Source: Gammaproteobacteria bacterium (GTDB lineage: Bacteria > Pseudomonadota > Gammaproteobacteria > UBA12402). Taken from it: a stretch of DNA of 64,000 bases. The notes below the pieces were generated by a model. It did not search any database, was not told the DNA's origin, and worked only from the letters and a program-made list of their open reading frames with translations. Made by a program: the position numbers and the translations under genes. Below, piece by piece: positions 5,165 to 21,528 of the stretch; position 1 is the stretch's first letter, and each line of letters begins with the position of its first letter. The stretch is from the NCBI GenBank assembly GCA_050123375.1, contig JASFHF010000003.1:2064-66063 (forward strand), given 5' to 3'.

Positions 5165-6109
5165 ATGGAATTTTTTAAAACCAATACAAAAATTGATTTT
5201 TTAGGATTACAAAAATGGGCGGCAGCATTTTCCATTATTATTTTTATTGCATCCGTTGTGTCGCTAATTATTTTTGGTTTAAATTTTGATTTAGATTTTA
5301 CTGGCGGTACTCAAATTAATTTAGTTTTTCCACAAACTGTTAATATAGTGCAGATTCGTAAAGATTTAGATGCAGCGGGTTTGAAAGATGCGCAAGTGCA
5401 AACTTACGGAAGCACCAAGGATGTATTGATTAGTTTGGGAATTAGTAAACAGATGCGTAAATCTGGCCAAACTTTAAAACAAATACAAGATACTTTAACT
5501 CAGGCAGTAGCAAAAGCGGTGCCGAATGGGAATGTTGTAAGAGTGAATTCAATCGGCGCCAAGGTTAGTTCAGAACTAGCATATAAAGGTATTTTGGCAG
5601 TAGTAATTGCAATGTTGGTTACCATGATTTATATCGCCTTTCGATTTGAATGGCATATGGCAGTTGGTGCGGCGGTATCACTAGTACACGATCCAATTTT
5701 AATTTTAGGTTTATTTTCGTTTTTTCATATTCGGTTTGATTTGGTGGCGCTTGCCGCGGTGTTAACTGTGATTGGTTATTCATTGAATGACACCATTGTT
5801 ATTTTTGACCGGGTGCGGGAAAATTTCCGTAAAATGCGTCGCGGTACACCAAAAGAAGTTGTTAATGCTGCAATTAATCAAACTTTATCACGAACTATTA
5901 TGTCAGCAGGTTTGGTTTTGTTAGTAGTGGTAGTGTTATATTTGTTTGGTGGGCCAGTGATTCATGCATTTTCATTAGCTCTAATCATTGGTATCGTGAT
6001 TGGTACTTATTCTTCAATTTATGTAGCTGGATCTCTTGCGGTAGCTTTAGGTTTACAGCGTTCTGATTTATTAACGGCTGCGAAACGCGAGTATGTGGAT
6101 ACTCCGTAG
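5165..6109 (+). CDS. secF: Protein translocase subunit SecF
   Basis: LDFTGGT, GYSLNDTIVIFDRVREN, GTYSSIYVA. Confidence 0.97.
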   Translation: MEFFKTNTKIDFLGLQKWAAAFSIIIFIASVVSLIIFGLNFDLDFTGGTQINLVFPQTVNIVQIRKDLDAAGLKDAQVQTYGSTKDVLISLGISKQMRKSGQTLKQIQDTLTQAVAKAVPNGNVVRVNSIGAKVSSELAYKGILAVVIAMLVTMIYIAFRFEWHMAVGAAVSLVHDPILILGLFSFFHIRFDLVALAAVLTVIGYSLNDTIVIFDRVRENFRKMRRGTPKEVVNAAINQTLSRTIMSAGLVLLVVVVLYLFGGPVIHAFSLALIIGIVIGTYSSIYVAGSLAVALGLQRSDLLTAAKREYVDTP

Positions 6110-6175
6110 TTAACTTGTTAACTGTCCGCGAAGCGTATTATTTTTGTACAGAATTTTTTTTATTTTTTTCATGCT

Positions 6176-6208
6176 CTTAAGATTGTCTTAAGGTTAGAGT
6201 TCTATAAT
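6176..6208 (+). promoter_or_regulatory. PmrA-type box with -10 element
   Basis: CTTAAGATT-gt-CTTAAGGTT-N7-TATAAT matches the Legionella/Coxiella PmrA element layout. Confidence 0.75.
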
Positions 6209-6240
6209 TAAAATAAGAAAGTGATAAGGGGGTGTAGAAT

Positions 6241-7923
6241 ATGAGTTATAATGAATTTGAGACATTTGAGCAGAAGACTTTTAATGACGCAATTAGGTAT
6301 TATTACGATAAGCAAACTAGCAAAACATCTGAGGAAAAATATTTGTATTTATGTTTTTGCCCAGAGCGCTATGATAATTTTACAGGTAAACCGCAGTATT
6401 TTCTTTGGCAAAAACCATATGTAAATCAATATAATTTTATCTTTGAACTTAGTGAGCATATTCAAGAATTAGAAAAAAAACCAAGTAAAACAAATATTAG
6501 GAGAGCAGATCTTTTGAAAAATTTGGTTCATAAGTTATATAACATTAGTGAAACTAAATCTAAATTATCTAGCATTAGTGATGCTATTGAAAAATTTCAC
6601 AAAAACCATGCTAAAGAATTAGGAAAACACTTTATTTTTCCGAGTAAAACTTCGAAGTTTTTAGGAAAAATGATTGGGGAAACCAGTAAAATTCAAACGG
6701 GGGTTTCATTCAAAAACAAGATCAATTATAAATGTGAAAAATTAGAAGATTTTACTACTACAGATAAAGAACGTCATATTGATCCAGTGCTCGCTAAGTG
6801 TGTTGTAAATGAAAAGGTGAAAAACTTTCAGAAATTAATTAAAGATCGAGTTGTGGAAGAAAGAAAGAAAATATTAAGTAAGCGCGGATTTTTGACCAAA
6901 GTATTACATTTCTTTATGCCACCACTTAAAAAGGCGTATGTTAATAAAAAATTGAAATTTCTAAATGATGGGTTGGAAAAATATAAAAAACTTTCATCTA
7001 CCGAAGAAGTATTGAAGCAAGTAAAATCTGAAAAAAAATCCGATTCAGAATCTACAAACGTTTTTGGTGATACCACAGTTGGCAAAAAACTTTCAAACAT
7101 TTGGAATGGTTTCAAGTCAGCATTTAAAAAGGCAACAGAATTTTTGACGAAAAAAGAACGGGAGATTGAAAAGAAAGATCTTGAAGAAAAAAGTAAAAAG
7201 AAATTGATTGAGAAGAAAAAGTGTGAAAAAGAAAAGAAAAGAAGGTTGATGGAGCAGAAAAAACAGCAAGATCAAGAAAAGCAAAGGAAATTAATAGCGA
7301 AGAAGAAGATGTTTAATGATGAACAAGCTTGTGGTTTATTAAAGAAGACAATATTATCTGAAAAAGAATATGGTTGGCTCAAGGGGTATTTGGGTAATTT
7401 AAACAATAAAAAATTATCTAATTTGTTTTCCAATTTGTATGCAAAAAAAGTAGTGGGTGGCGAATGTAAATATATAGTGAAAAAAGAAAGAGAACCAAGA
7501 CGTTATGAAGGGAGAGCAAATGATAAAAAGATTAAATCTTATGAGCCACAAAATCAAAATACGGGACTAAAGCAGAAGAGGAGGAAACGAAATGCTAAAC
7601 GACAAAATAACTGTATATCGTTCTTTGATTTAAAACTTTATTCTAAACACATTAAGGAAATATGTTTTGATCAACAACCACAACAACAGTTTGGCGTGAT
7701 AAAAGTAACCGTCAAAAACTCTTCATATTGGATGCGGCAATATATTGATCAAAAGACATATATGAAATGTCAAAAAAGTCCAAATATTTTCTTACAAAAA
7801 ATTTCAGAATGTTATGACCCCACATGTGGTACTACTACAGGTTTTGAGTTTAATGAAGCAAAATTTAACAAAAATTTCTCAGGCAATAATAAAAATGTTA
7901 AAAGAACGTTTGTAAATCATTGA
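6241..7923 (+). CDS. Hypothetical K/E-rich coiled-coil protein, candidate secreted effector
   Basis: 560-aa orphan ORF behind a PmrA-type box. Confidence 0.7.
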   Translation: MSYNEFETFEQKTFNDAIRYYYDKQTSKTSEEKYLYLCFCPERYDNFTGKPQYFLWQKPYVNQYNFIFELSEHIQELEKKPSKTNIRRADLLKNLVHKLYNISETKSKLSSISDAIEKFHKNHAKELGKHFIFPSKTSKFLGKMIGETSKIQTGVSFKNKINYKCEKLEDFTTTDKERHIDPVLAKCVVNEKVKNFQKLIKDRVVEERKKILSKRGFLTKVLHFFMPPLKKAYVNKKLKFLNDGLEKYKKLSSTEEVLKQVKSEKKSDSESTNVFGDTTVGKKLSNIWNGFKSAFKKATEFLTKKEREIEKKDLEEKSKKKLIEKKKCEKEKKRRLMEQKKQQDQEKQRKLIAKKKMFNDEQACGLLKKTILSEKEYGWLKGYLGNLNNKKLSNLFSNLYAKKVVGGECKYIVKKEREPRRYEGRANDKKIKSYEPQNQNTGLKQKRRKRNAKRQNNCISFFDLKLYSKHIKEICFDQQPQQQFGVIKVTVKNSSYWMRQYIDQKTYMKCQKSPNIFLQKISECYDPTCGTTTGFEFNEAKFNKNFSGNNKNVKRTFVNH

Positions 7924-7945
7924 TAAAAGATGGGCGCTATTTAAT

Positions 7946-7974
7946 TCCCGGAAATTGCGCAGCAATTTCCGGGA
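7946..7974. terminator. Hairpin, probable terminator
   Basis: TCCCGGAAATTGC-gca-GCAATTTCCGGGA between the converging 6241 gene and the fba-end copy. Confidence 0.6.
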
Positions 7975-7987
7975 TAACAAATATTAG

Positions 7988-8045
7988 TTATTTTTCCATA
8001 TCCTTACTATATTTCCCCACCGCTGCGGTGCCGTTTAAGCGTGCG
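7988..8045 (-). repeat. Copy 1 of the fba 3' end (ARLNGTAAVGKYSKDMEK*)
   Basis: Matches 11282..11339 with 5 substitutions and includes the stop codon. Confidence 0.93.
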
Positions 8046-8073
8046 GATTTTTTTATCTTTCAAAAAATTTGCA

Positions 8074-8103
8074 TTATAACCAAAATAGGTTATAATTATA
8101 ACC
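8074..8103 (+). promoter_or_regulatory. Probable TA operator
   Basis: TTATAACC-N6-GGTTATAA-TTATAACC directly before the toxin ATG. Confidence 0.6.
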
Positions 8104-8367
8104 ATGTGTGATTATAATATAAAAATACACAAACAAGCTAAAAAGAAGCTGCAAAGCCTTAACGCAAAAGATAGGCTTAAAATAACGGATAAAATCATGG
8201 AGTTATCATATAACCCGGATTCTGCTAATTTGGATACGAAGGTTTTAACTAATTCGTCTCTGTGGCGATTAAGAATTGGAAAATGGAGGGTTATTTATTC
8301 ACGTGATGACATGGTGAAAATTTTAAGGATAGAAAAAATAAAGTCAAGAGGAGACGTTTACAAATGA
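8104..8367 (+). CDS. RelE/ParE-family type II toxin
   Basis: 87 aa, WRLRIGKWRVIY...IKSRGDVYK. Confidence 0.9.
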   Translation: MCDYNIKIHKQAKKKLQSLNAKDRLKITDKIMELSYNPDSANLDTKVLTNSSLWRLRIGKWRVIYSRDDMVKILRIEKIKSRGDVYK

Positions 8368-8681
8368 ATCAATTACAAACTATTAACAATATTAGCGGTA
8401 AGCCAGAGTATGTGTTATTACCGATAAATGTGTATAAAATATTACGACGCGACATAATTCAGGCGTTTAAAACTATAGATCAGGAATATGAAGATTTTGA
8501 TCCAAAAGATTTTATTAAAAATCCAATTACCTTGCTGCGTATGCGGGCAAAAATAACGCAAACAGAATTGGCTAAAAGATTAAAAGTTACACAGGCTTAC
8601 ATAAGTAAAATTGAAAATGACAATTATAATGTTACTTCAGAAGTATTAAAGAAAATTAAAAAAGTATTAAAAACGAAATAA
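8364..8681 (+). CDS. Xre/HTH antitoxin (toxin-first gene order)
   Basis: ITQTELAKRLKVTQAYISKIEN HTH; ATGA overlap with the toxin. Confidence 0.85.
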   Translation: MNQLQTINNISGKPEYVLLPINVYKILRRDIIQAFKTIDQEYEDFDPKDFIKNPITLLRMRAKITQTELAKRLKVTQAYISKIENDNYNVTSEVLKKIKKVLKTK

Positions 8682-8682
8682 A

Positions 8683-8830
8683 TCAATTGGGGGCAGCGTC
8701 TTTACTATATTTCCCCACCGCAGCGGCGCCGTTTAAGCGCGCGCGTTTTAGCAATTCTTGCTGCGCGGCAGTTACATTTTCTTTTTTGCCTAGCCATGCT
8801 TTTAGGCAGGGAGCTTGTAGTGCACGTCCG
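8683..8830 (-). repeat. Copy 2 of the fba 3' end, ending in a REP-like arm (...GKYSKDAAPN*)
   Basis: 8704..8819 is identical to 11300..11415 (116 bp); 8820..8830 differs only at synonymous positions. Confidence 0.95.
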
Positions 8831-8862
8831 CATAACATAGTTACATTTTTTAACTTGCTAAG

Positions 8863-8916
8863 GCATATTCATTCCTGTAAAATCCAAAATATATGGTTTT
8901 AATAGGAATGAATATG
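8863..8916 (+). promoter_or_regulatory. Inverted-repeat operator of the AbiE operon
   Basis: CATATTCATTCCT ... AGGAATGAATATG immediately upstream of the antitoxin ATG. Confidence 0.65.
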
Positions 8917-8918
8917 TC

Positions 8919-9713
8919 ATGAGATTGTCAGAATACATTGATTTTTTAATTGCCCATGGCAAATGCTGTTTTTCACTTGATGAAGCGGAGGAGTATTTGG
9001 GCAAAAAGCGTTCTCTTGTTATAAAAGCGATTAATCATCAAAAAAAATTGGGTCGGATAGCAAGTCCTGCTAAAGGTTTTTATGTAATTGTTTCACCTGA
9101 ATATCGTATTTATGGTTGTTTGCCTGCAGAATATTTCATTCCTTACCTCATGAAGTACTGGGAACAAGATTATTACGCTGGTTTATTAACTGCCGCACTT
9201 TATCATGGTGCATCTCATCAAAAGCCGCAAATTTTTCAGGTAATTACCAATAAAAAACGACCGGTAGTATATTGTGGAAAAATAAAAGTAGTTTTTTATT
9301 TAAAAAAATGGTTTAATAACATTGCTTTTCAAAACTTTTCCACTTCAAAAGGTATTTTAAAAATCTCTACACCGGAACAAACCGCTATAGATTTATTTTT
9401 ATATTCTAAACAAAGTGGTGGGATAAATCATATCGCAACAGTTTTAGCAGAGTTGTCCGAGGCAATTAATTCTGAAAAACTTTTATCATTAATTCAAAAA
9501 CATCCTTATGGTGCTTGGCAGCAACGTATGGGGTATTTGTTTGATGAGCTGGGAGAGAAAAAACTAGCAACGGCAGTTGAGCAAAATATACAAGCTCAAA
9601 AAAGAATAATTTATATTCCTCTTGCTGCGATGTTACAAAAAACAAACAAAAAATATAAACGCGATAAAAAATGGAAAATAATTATTAATTCAACTATCGA
9701 GACAGATTTATGA
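8919..9713 (+). CDS. AbiEi-family type IV antitoxin
   Basis: KGFYVIV, YYAGLLTAALYHGASHQ, KISTPEQTAIDL; coupled to an AbiEii gene. Confidence 0.88.
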   Translation: MRLSEYIDFLIAHGKCCFSLDEAEEYLGKKRSLVIKAINHQKKLGRIASPAKGFYVIVSPEYRIYGCLPAEYFIPYLMKYWEQDYYAGLLTAALYHGASHQKPQIFQVITNKKRPVVYCGKIKVVFYLKKWFNNIAFQNFSTSKGILKISTPEQTAIDLFLYSKQSGGINHIATVLAELSEAINSEKLLSLIQKHPYGAWQQRMGYLFDELGEKKLATAVEQNIQAQKRIIYIPLAAMLQKTNKKYKRDKKWKIIINSTIETDL

Positions 9714-9820
9714 TTGAAAAAATTTATCTGGATGAATGGCGACAAGCGGCTCCATGGAAAACTTTGTTGATGGTAGAGCAAGATTTAATTATAAGTAAGG
9801 CGTTGGTGTGTTTGTATAAT

Positions 9821-10452
9821 CCTGCTTATATATCCACCGCCTGAGGCGGTGGATTGGGCAATGGTTTAACCGTTGCCAAAACAACCTGCTCATGTTACCA
9901 ATGTTGAGTTATCCCCATAACTCAACAAAAGAGGAAACAAGATGAGCAGGTTTAAAAGATTATCTCATGTTTTATGGTGTTGTATCTACCATATTGTGTG
10001 GGTTCCGAAATATAGATACAGGATTTTGGTTGGTGAGGTAGCGAGAGAGTTACGAAAGACGTTACATGTATTTGCAGGAAGGCTGGGCTGTAATGTTGTT
10101 GAATTAAACATTCAGCCAGATCATGTGCATTTGTTGTTAAGGGTGCCGCCAAAAATTAGCATATCGAAATTGATGGGGACATTGAAGGGCAAGAGCGCCA
10201 TTCAAATATTTCGTCAATTTCCGAATTTGCGCAAGAAGGTTTATTGGGGTAATCATTTTTGGGCGAAAGGTTATTGTGTTGATACAGTAGGTTTGAGCGA
10301 AGAAATGATCAAGAAGTATGTGAAGTTTCAAGAAAAAGAAGAAAAGCTTCACGAACAAAGAAATTTATTTTAATAACGAGATATTGGGGATAGCAAGCAC
10401 CCTTTAAGGGTGCTAAACAAAACCACCTTCTTAGAAGGTGGATTCTTTACTT
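9821..10452 (+). mobile_element. IS200/IS605-family element (tnpA only); ends approximate
   Basis: Subterminal hairpins at 9832..9854 and 10421..10443; Y1 transposase; no clear target duplication. Confidence 0.9.
9942..10373 (+). CDS. tnpA: IS200-family Y1 HUH transposase
   Basis: YHIVWVPKYR, DHVHLL (HUH), FWAKGY, catalytic Tyr in IKKYV. Confidence 0.95.
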   Translation: MSRFKRLSHVLWCCIYHIVWVPKYRYRILVGEVARELRKTLHVFAGRLGCNVVELNIQPDHVHLLLRVPPKISISKLMGTLKGKSAIQIFRQFPNLRKKVYWGNHFWAKGYCVDTVGLSEEMIKKYVKFQEKEEKLHEQRNLF

Positions 10453-11281
10453 AATGAACACATAAAAAACACATTAGCATTTCGTGGTGGAACGGCGCTT
10501 AATAAAATTTTTATTACCCCAGCCGCACGTTATAGCGAGGATCTGGATTTTGTGCAAATTCCAGATGAGCCTATTGGTAAAACTGTTAATGCAATACGTA
10601 GTGCATTGGATAGCTGGCTCGGAGAACCAAGGCGTAATTTCACCAAACGAGGTGTAAAATTAATTTATCGTTATAAAGCTGCTGATAATTCTTTCGCTAA
10701 ATTAAAAATTGAAATAAATATAACTGAACATTTTCAAATTGAGCCATTTCAACAGTATCCATTTTCTGTATCTTCTGAATGGTTTGATGGGGATGCATTT
10801 ATTACTAGTTATACGTTAGATGAGTTAATGGGTACAAAATTGCGTGCGCTTTATCAAAGGCGTAAGGGTAGAGATTTGTTTGATCTGTGGTTCACATTAA
10901 AAAATGATTTGATTAATGTTTCTAATGTCATATCGATTTTTGAGAAATATTGTAGTTTTCAAAAAGAGCCTATTACTCGTGCCATGTTTGAAAAAAGTTT
11001 GCATTTAAAAAAGCAGTATCAAGATTTTCAGGTAGATATTTTGCCTTTGCTGACACCAGAAGCTCAGTGGGATTTTTCACAGGCAATGAGTGTGGTTGAG
11101 GATAAATTTATTCAGAAGTTGAAAGGGAAGTCATGGCAAGGTAATGCATAATCCTTATGCAAATCATCAAGTAAGCATAGAATTTTAAGATTTAATATTT
11201 GCGAAATTTTAATGTTATATTACTTTACCTTACTGCAGACACAGAATATTGATATATTAATTATGGTAAAAGTAATATCAG

Positions 11282-12295
11282 TTATTTTTCCATATCCCCA
11301 CTATATTTCCCCACCGCAGCGGCGCCGTTTAAGCGCGCGCGTTTTAGCAATTCTTGCTGCGCGGCAGTTACATTTTCTTTTTTGCCTAGCCATGCTTTTA
11401 GGCAGGGAGCTTGTAACGCCCGGCCGTAAGAAAAACTAAGGTACCATGGTTGTGGACCGATTTTATTGATGGCATTTAAATTTTCGGTAGCCATCACATC
11501 ACTTTGGCCGCCGGATAAGAAATTAATGGTAGGTACTGCGGCTGGAACGGTGCGGCGTAAGATTTTAATTGTTGCTTGAGCTACTTCTTCAACGGATGGC
11601 TGCTTAGAAAATTCTTTACCGGCAACGATCATATTGGGTTTTAAAATCATTAATTCCAATTCAACTTTATGTTTGTGTAATTTATCAAATACTTTATGGA
11701 AAACTTTTTCGCTAACTTCGGCGCATTTTTCTAAACTATGATTACTATCCATTAAAACTTCCGGTTCAACAATTGGCACAATTCCAGCATTTTGACAAAT
11801 TTTGGCATAACGTGCGAGTAAGCATGCATTATTTTTGATGATTAATGAGGATGGATAAATATCAGAGATTTTAAAGACTACGCGCCATTTAGCAAAACGT
11901 GCGCCCATTTTTTTGTATTCTTCTAAGCGTTCTGGCAAGCCATCCAATCCTTGAGTGGTTTTTTCTTCTGTAGATGATTCAAATAAAATTAAGCCTTTAT
12001 CAACTTTTATTCCTGGAATAATGCCGCGTTCAGCTAATAATTGCGGAAATGGTGTGCCGTCTGCAGTTTTTTGACCTAAAGTTTCTTCATATAAAATTAC
12101 ACCGCAAATATATTTTTCTAATTCTGGTGTAGTGAATAAAAGTTCACGATAAGCGCGGCGGTTTTCTTCGGTTGATTCTACTTTAATTGTATCAAAGCGT
12201 TTTTTAATCGTAGGTGAGCTTTCGTCAGCAGCTAAAATTCCTTTGCCTGGGGTTATCATTGTTTTTATGGTTTGTTCGAGTTGATTGATGTTCAT
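11282..12295 (-). CDS. fba: Fructose-bisphosphate aldolase class I
   Basis: GKGILAADES, IKVDKG, VPIVEPEV, FLSGGQS, SFSYGRALQ. Confidence 0.95.
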   Translation of the reverse strand: MNINQLEQTIKTMITPGKGILAADESSPTIKKRFDTIKVESTEENRRAYRELLFTTPELEKYICGVILYEETLGQKTADGTPFPQLLAERGIIPGIKVDKGLILFESSTEEKTTQGLDGLPERLEEYKKMGARFAKWRVVFKISDIYPSSLIIKNNACLLARYAKICQNAGIVPIVEPEVLMDSNHSLEKCAEVSEKVFHKVFDKLHKHKVELELMILKPNMIVAGKEFSKQPSVEEVAQATIKILRRTVPAAVPTINFLSGGQSDVMATENLNAINKIGPQPWYLSFSYGRALQAPCLKAWLGKKENVTAAQQELLKRARLNGAAAVGKYSGDMEK

Positions 12296-12311
12296 AAAGT
12301 TTCTCCTAAGT

Positions 12312-12423
12312 TACTCCGTAGCGGGGTCAAGGCTTGAATTTTACACTTTAAATTAAAAAACCAAAACCTAGCTCTACCGCTTTTGCCCATTAAGTCAAAG
12401 CTTAAAATTCAAGCCTTGACCCC
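12312..12423. repeat. REPIN/MITE-like element, family A, copy 2 (reverse orientation)
   Basis: Arms GGGGTCAAGGCTTGAATTTTA at 12323..12343 and 12403..12423; spacer and tail homologous to copy 1. Confidence 0.88.
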
Positions 12424-12447
12424 ATTATTACGTGCCCCTATATCCAT

Positions 12448-13230
12448 TTATAAAAATCCCCTGATAATTTCTAATAATTGCTTGGTGATTTTTGGATTAC
12501 CGCAAACCACATGTCCGGTTTGTAAATAATCTTCGCCGCCAGTTGTTGGGTCAATAATCATGCCGCCTGCTTCGCGGATTAATAAAGCGCCGGCAGCAAC
12601 ATCCCAGGTTCCTAAACCGAATTCCCAAAATCCATCTAGTTGACCACTGGCCACGTACGCTAAATCCAGAGCTGCTGATCCAGCACGTCGAACACCTGCG
12701 CATTGCAAGGCAATGGCTTTTAAAGTTTCATAATATTGGTCGCGATATTCTGGTGAGCGAAAAGGAAAACCAGTTCCTAATAAACATTTTGGCAGTTGAT
12801 GTTCTTGGCTGACGCGAATGCGTTTATTATTTTTTTGTGCGCCGGAGCCGCGTGTTGCAGTAAATAAATCTTGTTTTAGCGGATCGTAAATTACTGCATG
12901 TTCAATAACTGTATTAATACGCAATGCAATTGAAACAGAAAAATGCGGTAAGCCATGGATAAAATTAGCCGTGCCATCCAGTGGATCAATTATCCATTGG
13001 AATTCATCGCCGTCAACGGTGCCGGTTTCTTCACCCAAAAAACCGTGGGTTGGGTAAGCGGTATGTAAAATATCCATGATGGTTTGTTCAGATGATTTAT
13101 CGATGTTGGTGACAAAATCTTTAGGATTTTTTTCGCTGACTTTGACTAAATCTAACCGCTCATAGCCTTTCATGATGATTTTGCCGGCTTCGCGCGCGGC
13201 TTTAATGGCGGTATTGATGAATGGGTGCAT
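12448..13230 (-). CDS. suhB: Inositol monophosphatase family protein SuhB
   Basis: WIIDPLDGT, RRAGSAALDL, WDVAAG. Confidence 0.95.
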   Translation of the reverse strand: MHPFINTAIKAAREAGKIIMKGYERLDLVKVSEKNPKDFVTNIDKSSEQTIMDILHTAYPTHGFLGEETGTVDGDEFQWIIDPLDGTANFIHGLPHFSVSIALRINTVIEHAVIYDPLKQDLFTATRGSGAQKNNKRIRVSQEHQLPKCLLGTGFPFRSPEYRDQYYETLKAIALQCAGVRRAGSAALDLAYVASGQLDGFWEFGLGTWDVAAGALLIREAGGMIIDPTTGGEDYLQTGHVVCGNPKITKQLLEIIRGFL

Positions 13231-13233
13231 AGA

Positions 13234-14553
13234 TTATTTCTCCATGGTTATAGGGTTAAGTTTATCAAATAATCCTATGGCGTAAAGGGGATAATTATAT
13301 ACAATATCATCATGCTTAAAATTAAGCAAATTTGTTCTTAAGATGCTATTTGCTTTATATTTTTGTGCGTAAATTTTTAAACTTTTAGCAAGGGTTGATT
13401 TGCCGGCTTTAACTTCTAAAGGAAACACAACTGATTGATGTTCTAAAATAAAATCAACCTCAGCTGAGCCTGCGCTTGTCCAGTAGTAAAGTTGATCTGA
13501 ATTATTAGCTATTAATTCTTGTGTTACAAAATTTTCAGTGAATGCGCCTTTAAATTCTGTGAATAGTTCCGATCCTTGGGTAATGATTTTTGGTGATAAT
13601 TTGGCCATGGCGCCTAATAATCCCACATCTAACATATAAATTTTAAACGCAGATTTATCTGCGTATGCATCTAGTGGTAGTTTAGGTGTATTAATCTTAA
13701 AAGAATTATAAATTAAACCAGCATCTAATAACCATTGAATGGCTGTTTGATATTCCCGGGCTCGAGCACTTTTATGAATGGCTGCAAATATAAATTTTTT
13801 ATTTTCTTTAGCTAATTGGTTTGGAATAGATTGCCATATATTCATTATTTTCATTGTTTCATTTGCCGGTGCATGTTTTGCAAAATCTAAGGTGTAAGCA
13901 TCTAAAATTGCTTTTTGTATTTTTCTAACTTGAGAAAAATCATTCGCTTTAATAAAAATTTTTACTGCTTCAGGCATACCGCCAATCACTAAATATTGTT
14001 TCAGCAAATTTAATAAATCATCATGAAATAATTTATTAATGGGGTTAAAATTTTTTAAGGAAATTAATAATTCATAAAGCTTCTCTTTGCCCATTGCATT
14101 TAAAAACTCAAAAAATGACAATGGTTTTAATTCAAGAAAGTCAACTTTGCCAACAGGAAATCCTTTGCTGCGATTTAACTTAATGCCTAATAAAGATCCT
14201 GCTGCAGCAATGTGATATTCGTTGGCGTGTTCATTAAAATATTTAAGGCTATTTAATGCTTCCGGGCATTCTTGGATTTCATCAAAAATTATTAAGGTTT
14301 CTCCAGGAGAGATTGATTGATTAAAATGTATTTGTAAATTGTTGATAATGTTTGTTGGATTTATGTCCCCGGCAAAGAAAGCGGCGATTTTGGATGATTC
14401 TTCAAAATTCACATATATGCAATTGCGATATTCTTTAGCGAATTTTTTCAATATATATGTCTTGCCAACCTGTCTTCCGCCTTTAATAATCAAAGGTTTA
14501 CGGTATTTGTTGCTTTTCCAGGTTAGTAATGATGTATAAATTAATCTTTGCAT
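13234..14553 (-). CDS. AAA_14 ATPase with DUF4143 / PD-(D/E)XK C-terminus, paralog 1
   Basis: GGRQVGKT, IFDEIQ, GGMPE, EVDF...PLEVK. Confidence 0.88.
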   Translation of the reverse strand: MQRLIYTSLLTWKSNKYRKPLIIKGGRQVGKTYILKKFAKEYRNCIYVNFEESSKIAAFFAGDINPTNIINNLQIHFNQSISPGETLIIFDEIQECPEALNSLKYFNEHANEYHIAAAGSLLGIKLNRSKGFPVGKVDFLELKPLSFFEFLNAMGKEKLYELLISLKNFNPINKLFHDDLLNLLKQYLVIGGMPEAVKIFIKANDFSQVRKIQKAILDAYTLDFAKHAPANETMKIMNIWQSIPNQLAKENKKFIFAAIHKSARAREYQTAIQWLLDAGLIYNSFKINTPKLPLDAYADKSAFKIYMLDVGLLGAMAKLSPKIITQGSELFTEFKGAFTENFVTQELIANNSDQLYYWTSAGSAEVDFILEHQSVVFPLEVKAGKSTLAKSLKIYAQKYKANSILRTNLLNFKHDDIVYNYPLYAIGLFDKLNPITMEK

Positions 14554-17286: not shown

Positions 17287-18651
17287 ATGTATAGAACAGC
17301 ACTGGCAGATTTACAGAATTGGCTTCAATCTAGTGATCGTAAACCTTTGGTTATGCGAGGGGCTCGTCAAGTTGGTAAAACTTGGCTAGTGCGGCAATTA
17401 GCAAAAATTACTGGTAGTCAGCTAATAGAGATAAACTTTGAGCAAAATCCGCAATTTGCTTCCATGTTTGAGAGTAATGATCCAAAGCAAATTATAATTA
17501 ACTTAGGTGCTGCTTTAAACACTACTATTGCGATTAGTAAAAGCATCTTATTTCTCGATGAAATTCAAACCGTTCCAGAGTTGTTAAGTAAATTACGCTG
17601 GTTTGCAGAAGATCTGCCTGAGTTAGCAGTAATTTCTACTGGTTCATTATTGGATTTTGTTTTAGCCGAACATAGTTTTAGCATGCCCGTAGGTAGGATA
17701 AGTTATTTACACCTGGAGCCTTTAACTTTTGAGGAATTTTTATTAGCAAAAGGACAAAAAAAGCTGTTTGAATTTATTCAAAATTTTAGTTGGCAAAATT
17801 CCATTCCAAAATTAATTCACGAAAAATTACTTAGCCTATTCAAGGAATATATAATAATTGGTGGCATGCCTGCTGTTACAGCTAGTTGGATTAAAAATAA
17901 TTCTCCGGTCGAAATAAACCGTCTTCATCATGAGCTTTTGACAGCTTATAAAGATGATTTTGCCAAATATGCAGGTAAAATTTCAACTGTTAGATTAGAA
18001 GAAGTATTAACAGCTTTTTCTCAAATGTTAGGAAAAAAATTCATCTATAATAAAGTAAATAAAGAAGTTTCTTACACTAGTATTAAAAATGCTCTGCAAT
18101 TATTGGTTAAAGCTGGAATATGTCATCAAGTGATTAGTACTGCTGCAAATGGCATTCCTTTAGGCGCAGAGATAAACACAAAATTTTTTAAAGTTATTGG
18201 AATAGATGTTGGATTAGTTTCCGCAGCGCTTAAGTTGGGATTACATCAAATGGATTCTATAACAGAAATAAACTTAATAAACAGTGGCGGTATTGCTGAA
18301 CAAGTTGTAGGGCAGCTTTTACGTACTATAGAACCAGGTTATATTGAACCATCTTTATATTATTGGGTAAGAGAACAAAAAAATTCTGCGGCAGAAGTAG
18401 ATTATTTAATACAGCATCAAAATAAAATTATTCCAATCGAGGTAAAGGCTGGCAGCACAGGTACACTTAAGTCGCTTCATTTTTTCATGGCGTTGAAAAA
18501 ATTGCAAACCGCGGTTCGAATAAATTCAGATGTTCCAACTATTACACAAATTAATACTAAAATTCATAATGGCAGCACGATAAAGTATCAATTAATTTCT
18601 ATACCATTTTATTTAACTCAGCAGCTTTATAGGTTGCTCGAATCTTGTTAG
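17287..18651 (+). CDS. AAA_14/DUF4143 ATPase, paralog 2
   Basis: GARQVGKT, FLDEIQ, GGMP, EVDY...PIEVK. Confidence 0.88.
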   Translation: MYRTALADLQNWLQSSDRKPLVMRGARQVGKTWLVRQLAKITGSQLIEINFEQNPQFASMFESNDPKQIIINLGAALNTTIAISKSILFLDEIQTVPELLSKLRWFAEDLPELAVISTGSLLDFVLAEHSFSMPVGRISYLHLEPLTFEEFLLAKGQKKLFEFIQNFSWQNSIPKLIHEKLLSLFKEYIIIGGMPAVTASWIKNNSPVEINRLHHELLTAYKDDFAKYAGKISTVRLEEVLTAFSQMLGKKFIYNKVNKEVSYTSIKNALQLLVKAGICHQVISTAANGIPLGAEINTKFFKVIGIDVGLVSAALKLGLHQMDSITEINLINSGGIAEQVVGQLLRTIEPGYIEPSLYYWVREQKNSAAEVDYLIQHQNKIIPIEVKAGSTGTLKSLHFFMALKKLQTAVRINSDVPTITQINTKIHNGSTIKYQLISIPFYLTQQLYRLLESC

Positions 18652-20361: not shown

Positions 20362-21528
20362 TTAATATTTTTTTGAAAAATATTTTTTAATTCCTTCTTG
20401 CCAAGGTAAAACTAAAATGTTTTCTATTTTTCTACGATATTTTTCTTTGGTTAAGCGAATTGCTTCGCATTTACCAAAATCTTTAGTTAATTTAATAAAA
20501 TTGGATAGTTTAGTGTCTGATACATTTATAGAGCTTTTTATCTCGATAAATAAAGTAGGCAATCCTGGTCGTTCCACGATTAAATCTATTTCAACGTCAT
20601 CTTTAGTTTTTAAGTATGAAAATTTAAATTCTGGATAGTAATACGATGCAAGTTTTATGCATTCTAAAATGATAAAGTGTTCGAAGGCTTCGCCGTATGC
20701 GCTGGTTCTTGGTTTTAATTCAGATGTTAAAGTGCGAGTTAACGCTCTGGTTACACCAATATCAAAATAATAAAATTTTGGTTTTAAACTTAAGCGTTTA
20801 CGAAATGAATTTTTAAATGGTTCTAAAAAGAAACCAAGCAAAGTATCTTCTAAAATAGAAAAATAGCTTTTTACTGTTTTGTGATCTACACCTACATCTT
20901 GTGATATATTATTGAAATTAATAATTTTTCCGTTACTTTGTGCCGAAACTTCTAAAAATTTTCTAAATGGATCTAGTTTTCTGATAAATTGTTCGTTCCA
21001 AATTTCTTCTTTTAAATAAGTATGTGCATAGGCGCGCAGGAATTGAATTTTTTCTTCACTGGTAGTAAAGCTAATTATTTCTGGTAAAGTGCCCCAGTTT
21101 AATACTGCATCTAAGTTAAATTTATCTTTTAATTCAAGAAATGAGAATGGAAATAAATGATAAACAAAGGCTCTGCCTGCTAAAAGATTTGCGCCACCGT
21201 GTTTTAATTTTCTAGCGCTTGAACCGGTCAAAATAAATTTTTTGTTAGTAACTCTAATCAAATGATGAATGACATCTAATAATTTTGGAATTTTTTGTAC
21301 TTCATCAATGATGATATGGGTTTGTTTTACCGGCATAGCATCGACTAATTCTTTTAACAAATTTGGATTACGCGCGAAACGATCTTCTTCAGCTGGATCT
21401 AATAAGTCAATCCATAAGGCTTGGGTTGTGGTAAATAATTGTTCTAGTAAAGTGCTTTTGCCGGTGCCTCTAGCCCCGAAGATAAAGAAGCTACGGTTTT
21501 TGGGTAGAGTTAATAATCTGGTTAGCAT
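20362..21528 (-). CDS. AAA_14/DUF4143 ATPase, paralog 3
   Basis: GARGTGKS, IIDEVQK, TGSSARKL, EIDL...FIEIK. Confidence 0.88.
   Translation of the reverse strand: MLTRLLTLPKNRSFFIFGARGTGKSTLLEQLFTTTQALWIDLLDPAEEDRFARNPNLLKELVDAMPVKQTHIIIDEVQKIPKLLDVIHHLIRVTNKKFILTGSSARKLKHGGANLLAGRAFVYHLFPFSFLELKDKFNLDAVLNWGTLPEIISFTTSEEKIQFLRAYAHTYLKEEIWNEQFIRKLDPFRKFLEVSAQSNGKIINFNNISQDVGVDHKTVKSYFSILEDTLLGFFLEPFKNSFRKRLSLKPKFYYFDIGVTRALTRTLTSELKPRTSAYGEAFEHFIILECIKLASYYYPEFKFSYLKTKDDVEIDLIVERPGLPTLFIEIKSSINVSDTKLSNFIKLTKDFGKCEAIRLTKEKYRRKIENILVLPWQEGIKKYFSKKY

Follow-up and report, generated by a model that had tools for sequence, protein, structure and literature searches.

Nobusato et al. 2000 (Gene 259:99) are said to have described insertion with long target duplication for restriction–modification genes. 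This mode of insertion is defined by genome comparison for restriction–modification gene complexes (Furuta et al. 2010, PMC2853133), and the repeats that flank such genes are >30 bp and variable, with 46 bp in Haemophilus influenzae and as much as ~400 bp in Helicobacter pylori (PMC2853133; PMC3874152). The insertions involve no other mobile element and occur mostly in naturally competent species, and their repeats frequently include a start or stop codon, so that the target survives (PMC2853133). A virus-like cycle has been proposed for restriction–modification genes, of which release and re-entry have never been shown (PMC2853133; PMC3874152). A related architecture is that of cis-mobilizable elements (CIMEs), which lack an integrase and accrete in an integrase-dependent manner beside integrative and conjugative elements (ICEs) or integrative and mobilizable elements (IMEs) at gene 3' ends (PMC5704250).

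The subject of the present analysis is the 3' end of fba, the gene of the class I fructose-bisphosphate aldolase, in a window of 64,000 nucleotides (positions 2064-66063 of contig C3) of a gammaproteobacterial genome (G000; 1.97 Mb, 74 contigs, 35% G+C). Two addiction/defence cassettes are stacked at this gene end between copies of the fba tail, and the stack probably arose by serial insertion with long target duplication, through recombination guided by tail homology and with no cassette-borne integrase or transposase. The observations that were made are the duplications, a mosaic of tail alleles, variable cassette content, empty sites, recurrence at other genes, no recombinase in cis and no common ends among the inserts. 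The features of the locus are listed below in the coordinates of the window, with protein ends given up to the stop codon.

11282-12295, minus strand: fba, class I fructose-bisphosphate aldolase, intact, 337 aa, end SGDMEK (PF00274, E 4.9e-146)
11300-11426, minus strand: tail repeat inside the live fba gene, 116 nt equal to tail copy 2 and then 11 nt with four synonymous changes
11246-11281, minus strand: post-stop stretch of fba, in common with the tail copy that precedes the HigBA cassette in the sister species, genome-unique
10452-11151, plus strand: 3' part of the AbiEii toxin gene (nucleotidyltransferase; type IV toxin–antitoxin/abortive infection; PF08843, E 2.8e-36)
9820-10451, plus strand: IS200-family insertion of 632 nt that splits AbiEii, with a Y1 transposase open reading frame (ORF) at 9942-10373 (PF01797, E 7.3e-42)
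9710-9819, plus strand: 5' part of the AbiEii toxin gene (ORF 9710-9844), fused to 10452 in a contig of run X2
8919-9713, plus strand: AbiEi antitoxin/regulator gene (PF09407, E 5.4e-36)
8831-8918, plus strand: AbiE promoter/operator side, with a promoter-like site at 8855-8883 and an inverted repeat at 8864-8886 / 8894-8916
8683-8830, minus strand: fba tail copy 2 (GRAL...SKDAAPN), the displaced former fba end, 148 nt, live fba end in the sister species
8364-8681, plus strand: helix–turn–helix (HTH, Xre-type) antitoxin gene (PF01381, E 4.4e-12), 95% identical in the sister species
8104-8367, plus strand: ParE/RelE-superfamily toxin gene (PF05016, E 2.2e-07)
8052-8103, plus strand: ParE-HTH promoter side, with TTTGCA-17-TATAAT at 8068-8096 and a palindrome at 8068-8123
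7988-8051, minus strand: fba tail copy 1 (...SKDMEK), 58-64 nt by pairwise match to the fba end, presumably the native end that fba had originally
7946-7975, no strand: hairpin separating the original fba end from a 560-aa ORF convergent with it, kept in the sister species, missed by a simple terminator scan and likely a two-way terminator

Overall, fba and its sister loci in the same genome are closest to insertion with long target duplication. The insert is <20 kb and contains a complete addiction unit (a toxin–antitoxin pair where the original definition names R and M genes), it lies between target-derived direct repeats that exceed 30 bp at fba and measure 30-80 nt at eight further loci, and neither a mobility gene nor dispersed repeats are involved, the IS200 copy being a secondary insertion inside AbiEii. 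Clean empty sites, in which the repeated segment is single-copy, are present for htpX and eno in the sister species (G001), which at fba lacks AbiE and has the counterpart of the copy-2 end as its live end. An addiction-type unit between variable, genome-unique repeats of >30 bp, an intact gene and empty sites in relatives are thus shared with the restriction–modification case. Unlike there, the cargo of the fba type comprises toxin–antitoxin and Abi genes and some non-addiction genes, a nuclease break made by the cargo, the idea put forward for restriction–modification genes, is not applicable to the RNase-type toxins of the tail cassettes, and the cassettes are serial at one gene tail and strain-variable, with insert ends that carry diverged gene-tail alleles.

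The AbiEi (PF09407) and AbiEii (PF08843) genes are adjacent and appear to form one operon with an inverted-repeat operator, as predicted for an AbiE system, and the ParE toxin and HTH antitoxin genes overlap by 4 nt and have their own putative promoter/operator, as predicted for a type II pair. Both cassettes have their own promoter-like site and palindrome, and each stops within ~1 base of the stop codon of the neighbouring tail (1 nt between the stops of the HTH gene and tail copy 2). The AbiEi and AbiEii insert measures ~2.5 kb (1.8 kb without the IS200 copy) and the ParE and HTH insert ~0.65 kb. The IS200 copy has hairpins near both ends (one at 10423-10441) and a depth of ~650 compared with ~92, which corresponds to ~7 copies.

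The 127 nt at 8704-8830 and 11300-11426 are 97% identical: 116 bases of tail copy 2 are identical to fba (8704-8819 = 11300-11415) and are followed by 11 bases with four changes (GGC CGG GCG TTA compared with GGA CGT GCA CTA, both encoding GRAL). Since all four changes within 11 nt are synonymous, two functional fba alleles appear to be juxtaposed at this edge, where copy 2 and the sister species are alike and the live fba gene of the focal genome differs. Tail copy 1 (7988-8045, alignable to ~8051) carries five substitutions relative to the fba end and retains its TAA, and the three ends read SGDMEK (live), SKDAAPN (copy 2) and SKDMEK (copy 1). A sequence-only reading of this stretch had reported the 116-bp identity with its synonymous edge, which is exact, as well as the substitutions and the three ends, which were confirmed. 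The gene order it gave (fba, AbiE, tail, RelE/HTH, tail, hairpin) is present, including the hairpin that is conserved in the sister species. It had placed the cassettes on the minus strand, which is incorrect as the cassette genes are on the plus strand and convergent with fba, and it recognized the AbiE module but missed that AbiEii is split by the 632-nt IS200 copy.

Each of the tail flanks has a single match in the 1.97 Mb genome, so the repeats are not a dispersed family. Their extents differ (148, ~137, and ~58-64 nt, with starts at 8830, ~8819 in run X2, and ~8051), and ~45 nt are common to all fba tail copies, which leaves room for a core even though the repeat starts vary. The stop-side end of the AbiE insert consists of a native-type fba end and the first post-stop bases and is nearly identical to copy 1. 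The site that AbiE entered ended in DAAPN, as in the sister species and in copy 2, and had already lost the native-type tail; the incoming DNA must therefore have carried the fba tail of a native-end genome. The DAAPN end at the ParE-HTH side is cassette-supplied sequence and not an fba allele. That SKDMEK is the native end is supported by a cassette-free relative (L029) in which fba ends in TKDMEKQINTP.

The stretch at 11246-11281 combines native post-stop bases with ~28 nt that are common to two different cassettes, following the fba stop at the AbiE cassette of the focal genome and at the HigBA cassette of the sister species. The fba proteins of the two species are 98% identical (DNA ~92% across fba), and the divergence peaks at 11396-11485 with 10-12 mismatches per 60 nt compared with 78 per 996 overall. 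This peak is located just upstream of the repeat edge, beyond the reach of a 148-nt circle. Separately, 8839-8866, just outside copy 2, is 75% identical to the inner fba tail at 8770-8797 (28 nt) and may be a decayed further tail fragment or a chance match.

The fba site was compared with that of relatives and with Logan contigs from four public sequencing runs (X1-X4) aligned to window positions 6500-13000; X1 is the probable source sample, and X2 and X3 belong to two further studies. Four arrangements were identified: that of the focal genome, that of X2, one shared by the sister species and X3, and an empty site. In the sister species, fba (end SKDADPN) is followed by ParE-HTH, a tail copy with 4 nt deleted at its stop, a HigB-like toxin with an HTH gene, and the hairpin, with no third tail copy. 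A contig of X3 joins 11337 to 8049 with a 4-nt deletion, which is the same type of joint. The X2 contig (5047 nt) carries fba, an intact AbiE module, a tail, 765 nt, a tail, a 54-nt HTH remnant and a tail. Its segments correspond to 6500-8053, 8 nt, 8628-8819, the 765 nt without a counterpart, 8699-9819 and 10452-11785, and are 96-99% identical to the window except for one 192-nt tail piece at 93%. A total of 574 nt of ParE-HTH is lost in X2, and the 765 nt represent an extra cassette-sized insert between two tail copies. The contig runs from 9819 straight into 10452, skipping 9820-10451, so AbiEii is intact in the X2 strain, and the absence of the IS200 copy there indicates that its insertion is recent and that the toxin gene was inactivated in the focal genome. 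The fba site has no cassette in three metagenome relatives (L029, L030, and L085; 84-88% aldolase protein identity). Cassette number and content at the fba end thus vary between relatives, which supports the fba end as a re-used landing site. No tail copy was found downstream of fba in 23 other loci, many of which have only ~1.5 kb of downstream sequence, and the HTH antitoxin is present in 3 out of 14 genomes of the family (the focal genome, the sister species, and one relative at 47%).

The recurrence of gene-tail copies was assessed by comparing the last 90 nt of 1377 ORFs of ≥150 aa with the genome, with multi-copy tails (44) and heads (64) set aside. A tail copy ≤10 kb downstream on the same strand was found in 20 rows at 14 loci, and 12 loci remained after removal of tandem paralogues (C28 and C51). 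The controls gave 2 rows of 19 nt each for tail copies downstream on the opposite strand (2 after paralogue removal), 8 rows for tail copies upstream (4 after removal), and 8 rows for gene head copies upstream (2 after removal). In 9 out of the 12 loci at least one ORF lies between the copies. The loci and their contents are as follows.

fba: AbiE and ParE-HTH, repeats of 127-148 nt and 58-64 nt
ffh: YafQ/RelB, a tail, HicB/HicA, a third tail, and HigA/HigB (assigned by Pfam)
gshA: HTH-Panacea antitoxin and a 141-aa ORF, 47-nt repeats
htpX-like M48 peptidase gene: BrnT and an 81-aa partner, 30-nt perfect repeats (30/30)
mutM: 1066-aa VWA/U-box protein between mutM and a P-type ATPase gene, 44-nt repeats (L025 2127-5327, contig C4)
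yhdP: 517-aa protein without assigned function, 60-80-nt repeats
eno: 627-aa protein without assigned function
prmB/yciB: AAA_14-DUF4143 ATPase, 38-nt duplication (L116 1180-2469)
TPR-methyltransferase gene: more complex arrangement (contig C9:46000-52000, L119)
uppS and pyrB: tail copies ~120 nt downstream with no gene between
C31 locus: 27-nt tail match

At mutM and prmB/yciB, two convergent genes overlap at their ends within the duplicated 38-44 nt, and both are therefore intact. The left copies at htpX and eno keep matching the native tail past the perfect block. In the sister species, the ffh site has a different first cassette with a HicB/HicA pair that is 25-29% identical in protein, followed by a shared tail copy and a shared HicB, and at the gshA site a further HD-domain gene of 1.6 kb lies distal to the Panacea cassette that both species have, within the displaced tail and with a 36-nt duplication; these two states indicate that a new cassette can land in a displaced tail as well as in a live one. 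Three unrelated cassettes of the ffh stacks are 84-89% alike over ~50 nt at their promoter-side end. No tail stack was seen at ffh in 9 further genomes from the family, for many of which no more than ~1.5 kb downstream was available, and a search for orphan tails far from their own gene returned paralogues and was uninformative.

Several side observations concern these loci. The AAA_14-DUF4143 genes are four in number and lie among housekeeping genes (suhB/trmJ, iscU/lysR-type, and others; window 13234-14553, 17287-18651, and 20362-21528, and L116 1180-2469); since the prmB/yciB copy is bracketed by a 38-nt duplication with both gene ends, the group seems to move as cargo in the same way. The VWA/U-box protein at mutM has a eukaryote-like ubiquitin-ligase fold and looks like a secreted-effector-type gene gained by the same route. 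At L119, a 51-nt copy of the TPR-methyltransferase tail and a 103-nt head copy of the neighbouring gene bracket ORF6N, ATPase_2 and other ORFs. The last codons and stop of the present eno gene are provided by a 62-nt dispersed repeat (L115 1746-1807, contig C1) with 35 BLAST matches on ~20 contigs (the fullest five at 95-98%), which is also found downstream of tamB in the sister species. Contig C17:11000-19000 contains three copies of the 3' half of tRNA-Leu(taa) (L028 1514-1602, 2821-2867, and 6472-6530), which bound two integrase-free segments of ~1.2 and 3.6 kb (unassigned ORFs and a response regulator), and a second AbiEii/AbiEi pair follows the third copy.

A screening for recombinases showed that none of the nine genome matches to PF00589 (tyrosine recombinases) and none of the three to PF00239 (serine recombinases) is located on contig C3, that none of these 12 matches is on the contigs examined for tail-copy loci, and that the 25 neighbouring ORFs ≤32 kb from the window start contain no recombinase and are housekeeping or AAA_14-DUF4143 genes. 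A site-specific element with an integrase inside or adjacent was accordingly rejected for the contig and the neighbouring ORFs. Ten inserts displayed no terminal inverted repeats, shared ends or motifs above the level of random internal 60-mers; their inverted-repeat scores were 6-10 compared with a random mean of 8.0 (sd 1.8), and their duplications are long and variable. The lack of common ends among the 10 inserts speaks against both a transposon and a single dedicated site-specific system, and a cassette borne by a transposon or insertion sequence was rejected because the scores are at the random level and the duplications long and variable. Several tails contain a GCAGC/GCTGC motif noticed by eye, which was set aside at a genome frequency of 2.4 per kb.

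The sequence-only reading had stated that no integrase is nearby, which agrees with this screening, and its two broader proposals, a reusable landing pad at the fba end and further accessory genes bracketed by repeated 3' ends of core genes, are borne out by the four arrangements among relatives and by the 12 loci compared with 2-4 in the controls. Its claim that each cassette arrived with a diverged allele of the tail holds for AbiE, which has a native-type tail that the recipient had lost, but not for ParE-HTH, where DAAPN is cassette sequence.

It is unlikely that the stack was produced by site-specific accretion in trans, in which integrase-less, CIME-like elements bounded by attL and attR would be stacked by tyrosine recombinases of ICEs, IMEs or prophages elsewhere. 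A restored gene end, a displaced end and tandem elements that share a repeat are the architecture of att-site accretion (PMC5704250), but at least nine different protein-gene tails are used and as many specificities would be needed. Although the genome holds nine PF00589 and three PF00239 matches, no recombinase is encoded on the contigs concerned, and although the ~45-nt tail segment could hold a core, repeat lengths and starts vary at fba itself and no motif or end is common to the 10 inserts. The triplicated tRNA-Leu 3' half around integrase-free segments and a related AbiE module of another metagenome-assembled genome, located in a classical integrase island with 51-nt repeats, also fit accretion; a cargo of 0.6-0.7 kb with cassette and host stops 0-1 nt apart leaves no room for arm-type sites on the stop side.

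Serial insertion guided by tail homology would proceed as follows. Self-contained cassettes with their own promoter, toxin and antitoxin, oriented convergently with fba, would enter via tail homology, and each entry would preserve the fba reading frame with a donor-type tail or a few cassette-encoded codons while displacing the former tail downstream as a pseudo-tail. Any tail copy, live or displaced, could then serve as a substrate for further entry, interstrain swap or loss, and repetition of these events would give a strain-variable stack. Host general recombination (RecA is present) would be the engine, and an addictive cargo together with a preserved housekeeping gene may explain persistence. 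The entering form may be a circle that integrates by a single crossover or linear DNA that integrates by a double crossover from a duplication-bearing donor; the dependence on RecA and the origin of the first duplication are parts of the model that we infer. Judged from the sequences, a Campbell-type crossover of a circle (tail fragment plus cassette) would reproduce the architecture and a linear double crossover would do likewise, and the divergence peak upstream of the repeat indicates that the linear form fits at least as well. RecA, ComEC, DprA and MutS are encoded in the genome, RecT was not found in it, and the presence of MutS indicates that loss of mismatch repair is not the explanation. 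The shared frames next to the tails (28 nt at fba, ~50 nt at ffh) may be co-carried native downstream DNA or borders for cassette swaps.

Illegitimate insertion de novo that creates a true long target-site duplication is improbable, although some loci resemble its expected product. In this scheme, first proposed for restriction–modification genes, non-homologous DNA is captured at breaks staggered by 30-150 nt and selection retains only events with intact gene ends. The htpX copies are identical (30/30) with a clean and empty site in the sister species, the 38-44-nt duplications at prmB/yciB and mutM/ATPase hold both convergent gene ends in intact form, and repeat sizes of 38-47 nt recur, near the 45-47 nt of Table 2 in PMC2853133. 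A blind staggered cut does not account for an AbiE insert with an fba-homologous stop-side end and an 11-nt synonymous-variant stretch at its other junction, nor for left htpX and eno copies that match the native tail past the perfect block, and the frames that unrelated cassettes have in common (28 nt at fba, ~50 nt at ffh) are a better fit to homologous exchange. The native-type AbiE tail, the synonymous edge and the extended htpX and eno matches therefore favor homology-guided entry.

A number of points weigh against homology-guided serial insertion. Neither a plain single crossover nor the linear double crossover accounts by itself for an identical 116-nt block beside diverged edges; the simplest supplement is that the repeats underwent gene conversion afterwards, and an identical donor block is the alternative. 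ComEC, DprA and RecA are near-universal (10-14 out of 14 controls) and carry little weight. No donor was found: the nearest AbiEi relative is only 46% identical, and the 10 loci with the nearest AbiEi relatives in genome contigs (34-46% identical) include none with an fba tail and two with module-spanning repeats, one of which is the classical integrase island. The fba tail motif had 0 matches in viral contigs, and a plasmid search with the whole region returned 319 records, all to the IS200 tnpA only. Neither a deletion joint nor a joint of the ~2.6-kb AbiE circle predicted by the sequence-only reading was listed in the contigs of the four runs, which cannot reveal rare forms. The contigs of X1 match the window perfectly, with a depth of 92 for AbiE, equal to the flanks (86-93), and of 205 for the repeat bin compared with ~92 for its flanks, ~2x as expected for two copies; its unitigs break at the 116-nt repeats, only contigs are available, with no entering or excised molecule among them, and X1 alone cannot separate an equal-depth mixture of AbiE circle and AbiE-free chromosome from the integrated form. 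The X2 contig crosses the repeats and might be a chimera. Finally, the ~45-nt segment in all fba cassettes is a possible core for a trans-acting recombinase, and stacks were found only in this genus (0 out of 23 fba and 0 out of 9 ffh loci elsewhere), which could point to a lineage-specific enzyme.

An assembly artefact, i.e., mis-joined strains or collapsed repeats in the metagenome-assembled genome, is very unlikely despite the 74 contigs, the unitig ends at the 116-nt repeats and a minor strain in the source run (represented by a 430-nt piece that has depth 10.5 and 43 differences), because tail copies of this kind, there accompanied by different cassettes, are also present in a sister species that was assembled independently, a contig of another study spans 6500-11785 through three tail copies and AbiE, a contig of a third study repeats the sister-type joint including its 4-nt deletion, and the repeat depth is twice that of the flanks.

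Other known systems resemble homology-guided tail insertion in part. In Streptococcus thermophilus, ICESt1, ICESt3 and CIMEs are located at the 3' end of fda, itself an aldolase gene. Like ICE/IME/CIME accretion, the fba locus has a rebuilt gene end, a displaced old end and stacked, integrase-less elements bounded by repeats; unlike it, the tail cassettes have no integrase in cis or on the contig, use many target genes with variable repeats at one gene, and measure 0.6-2.5 kb, with no gene for transfer or recombination. Phage 21 and e14 integrate into icd and supply a substitute 3' end, and they share with the fba cassettes an incoming, alternative and partly synonymous 3' end that leaves the old end as a pseudo-tail, but these prophages encode an integrase themselves and use a fixed att core. 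Chromosomal integrons carry toxin–antitoxin cassettes in arrays, which resemble the tail stacks in gene- or promoter-proximal stacking, in small, strain-variable, single-function cassettes, and in toxin–antitoxin cargo. Unlike integron cassettes, the tail cassettes come with a promoter each and lie between copies of host gene tails, and an integron was rejected because there is no PF00589 match on the contig and no conserved inverted-repeat end in the 10 inserts; no IntI, attI or attC was found, with no dedicated attC model used. In orphan CdiA-CT/CdiI and Rhs-CT modules a new 3' end with an immunity gene displaces the old end, and the retained homology allows later recombination; there the exchanged 3' end is a toxin domain, whereas at fba the tail of a housekeeping enzyme would be a handle only. 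Integrons, icd prophages and CdiA/Rhs tips may thus be regarded as analogies in outcome and not in machinery.

Two features adjoin the locus. The 560-aa lysine-rich ORF (window 6241-7923) has no Pfam match and is oriented convergently towards the original end of fba. Its length is polymorphic, with 457 aa in the sister species and 665 nt skipped by an X4 contig, and L029 carries two paralogues of it next to fba. Between fba and suhB lies a palindromic repeat of ~100 nt with 34-nt arms (window 12321-12425), which is multi-copy (depth 620-890 compared with ~90, and many copies in the sister species); an Rfam scan of 6000-13500 returned only a spurious, sub-threshold match to a miRNA model on this repeat.

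How toxin–antitoxin modules reach their chromosomal positions was called unelucidated in a 2020 review (PMC7167474), and surveys of defence hotspots include some sites without an identifiable mode of mobilization (PMC10121019). No earlier description of toxin–antitoxin cassettes stacked between copies of a housekeeping-gene tail was found in the literature searched, which was mostly non-subscription and excluded supplements; the new parts are the toxin–antitoxin cargo and the serial, strain-variable stacking. With a readable entry scar, several independent site states, a mosaic of tail alleles and no recombinase in cis, fba and its sister loci give a testable model that ties toxin–antitoxin mobility to the route described for restriction–modification genes, and a search rule for other genomes, namely a low-copy duplicate of a gene's 3' end no more than a few kb downstream on the same strand. 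A wider reading is possible rather than probable, in which the last 30-150 bases of this lineage's housekeeping genes would act as recombinase-free attachment sites, an "integron without integrase" where tail-bearing circles or fragments enter any live or displaced tail through the host's homologous recombination, stack, swap within conserved frames and pop out, with toxin–antitoxin, Abi, ATPase and effector-like genes as cargo and addiction enforcing retention. If true, it would be a general answer to how toxin–antitoxin modules arrive at "ordinary" chromosomal positions.

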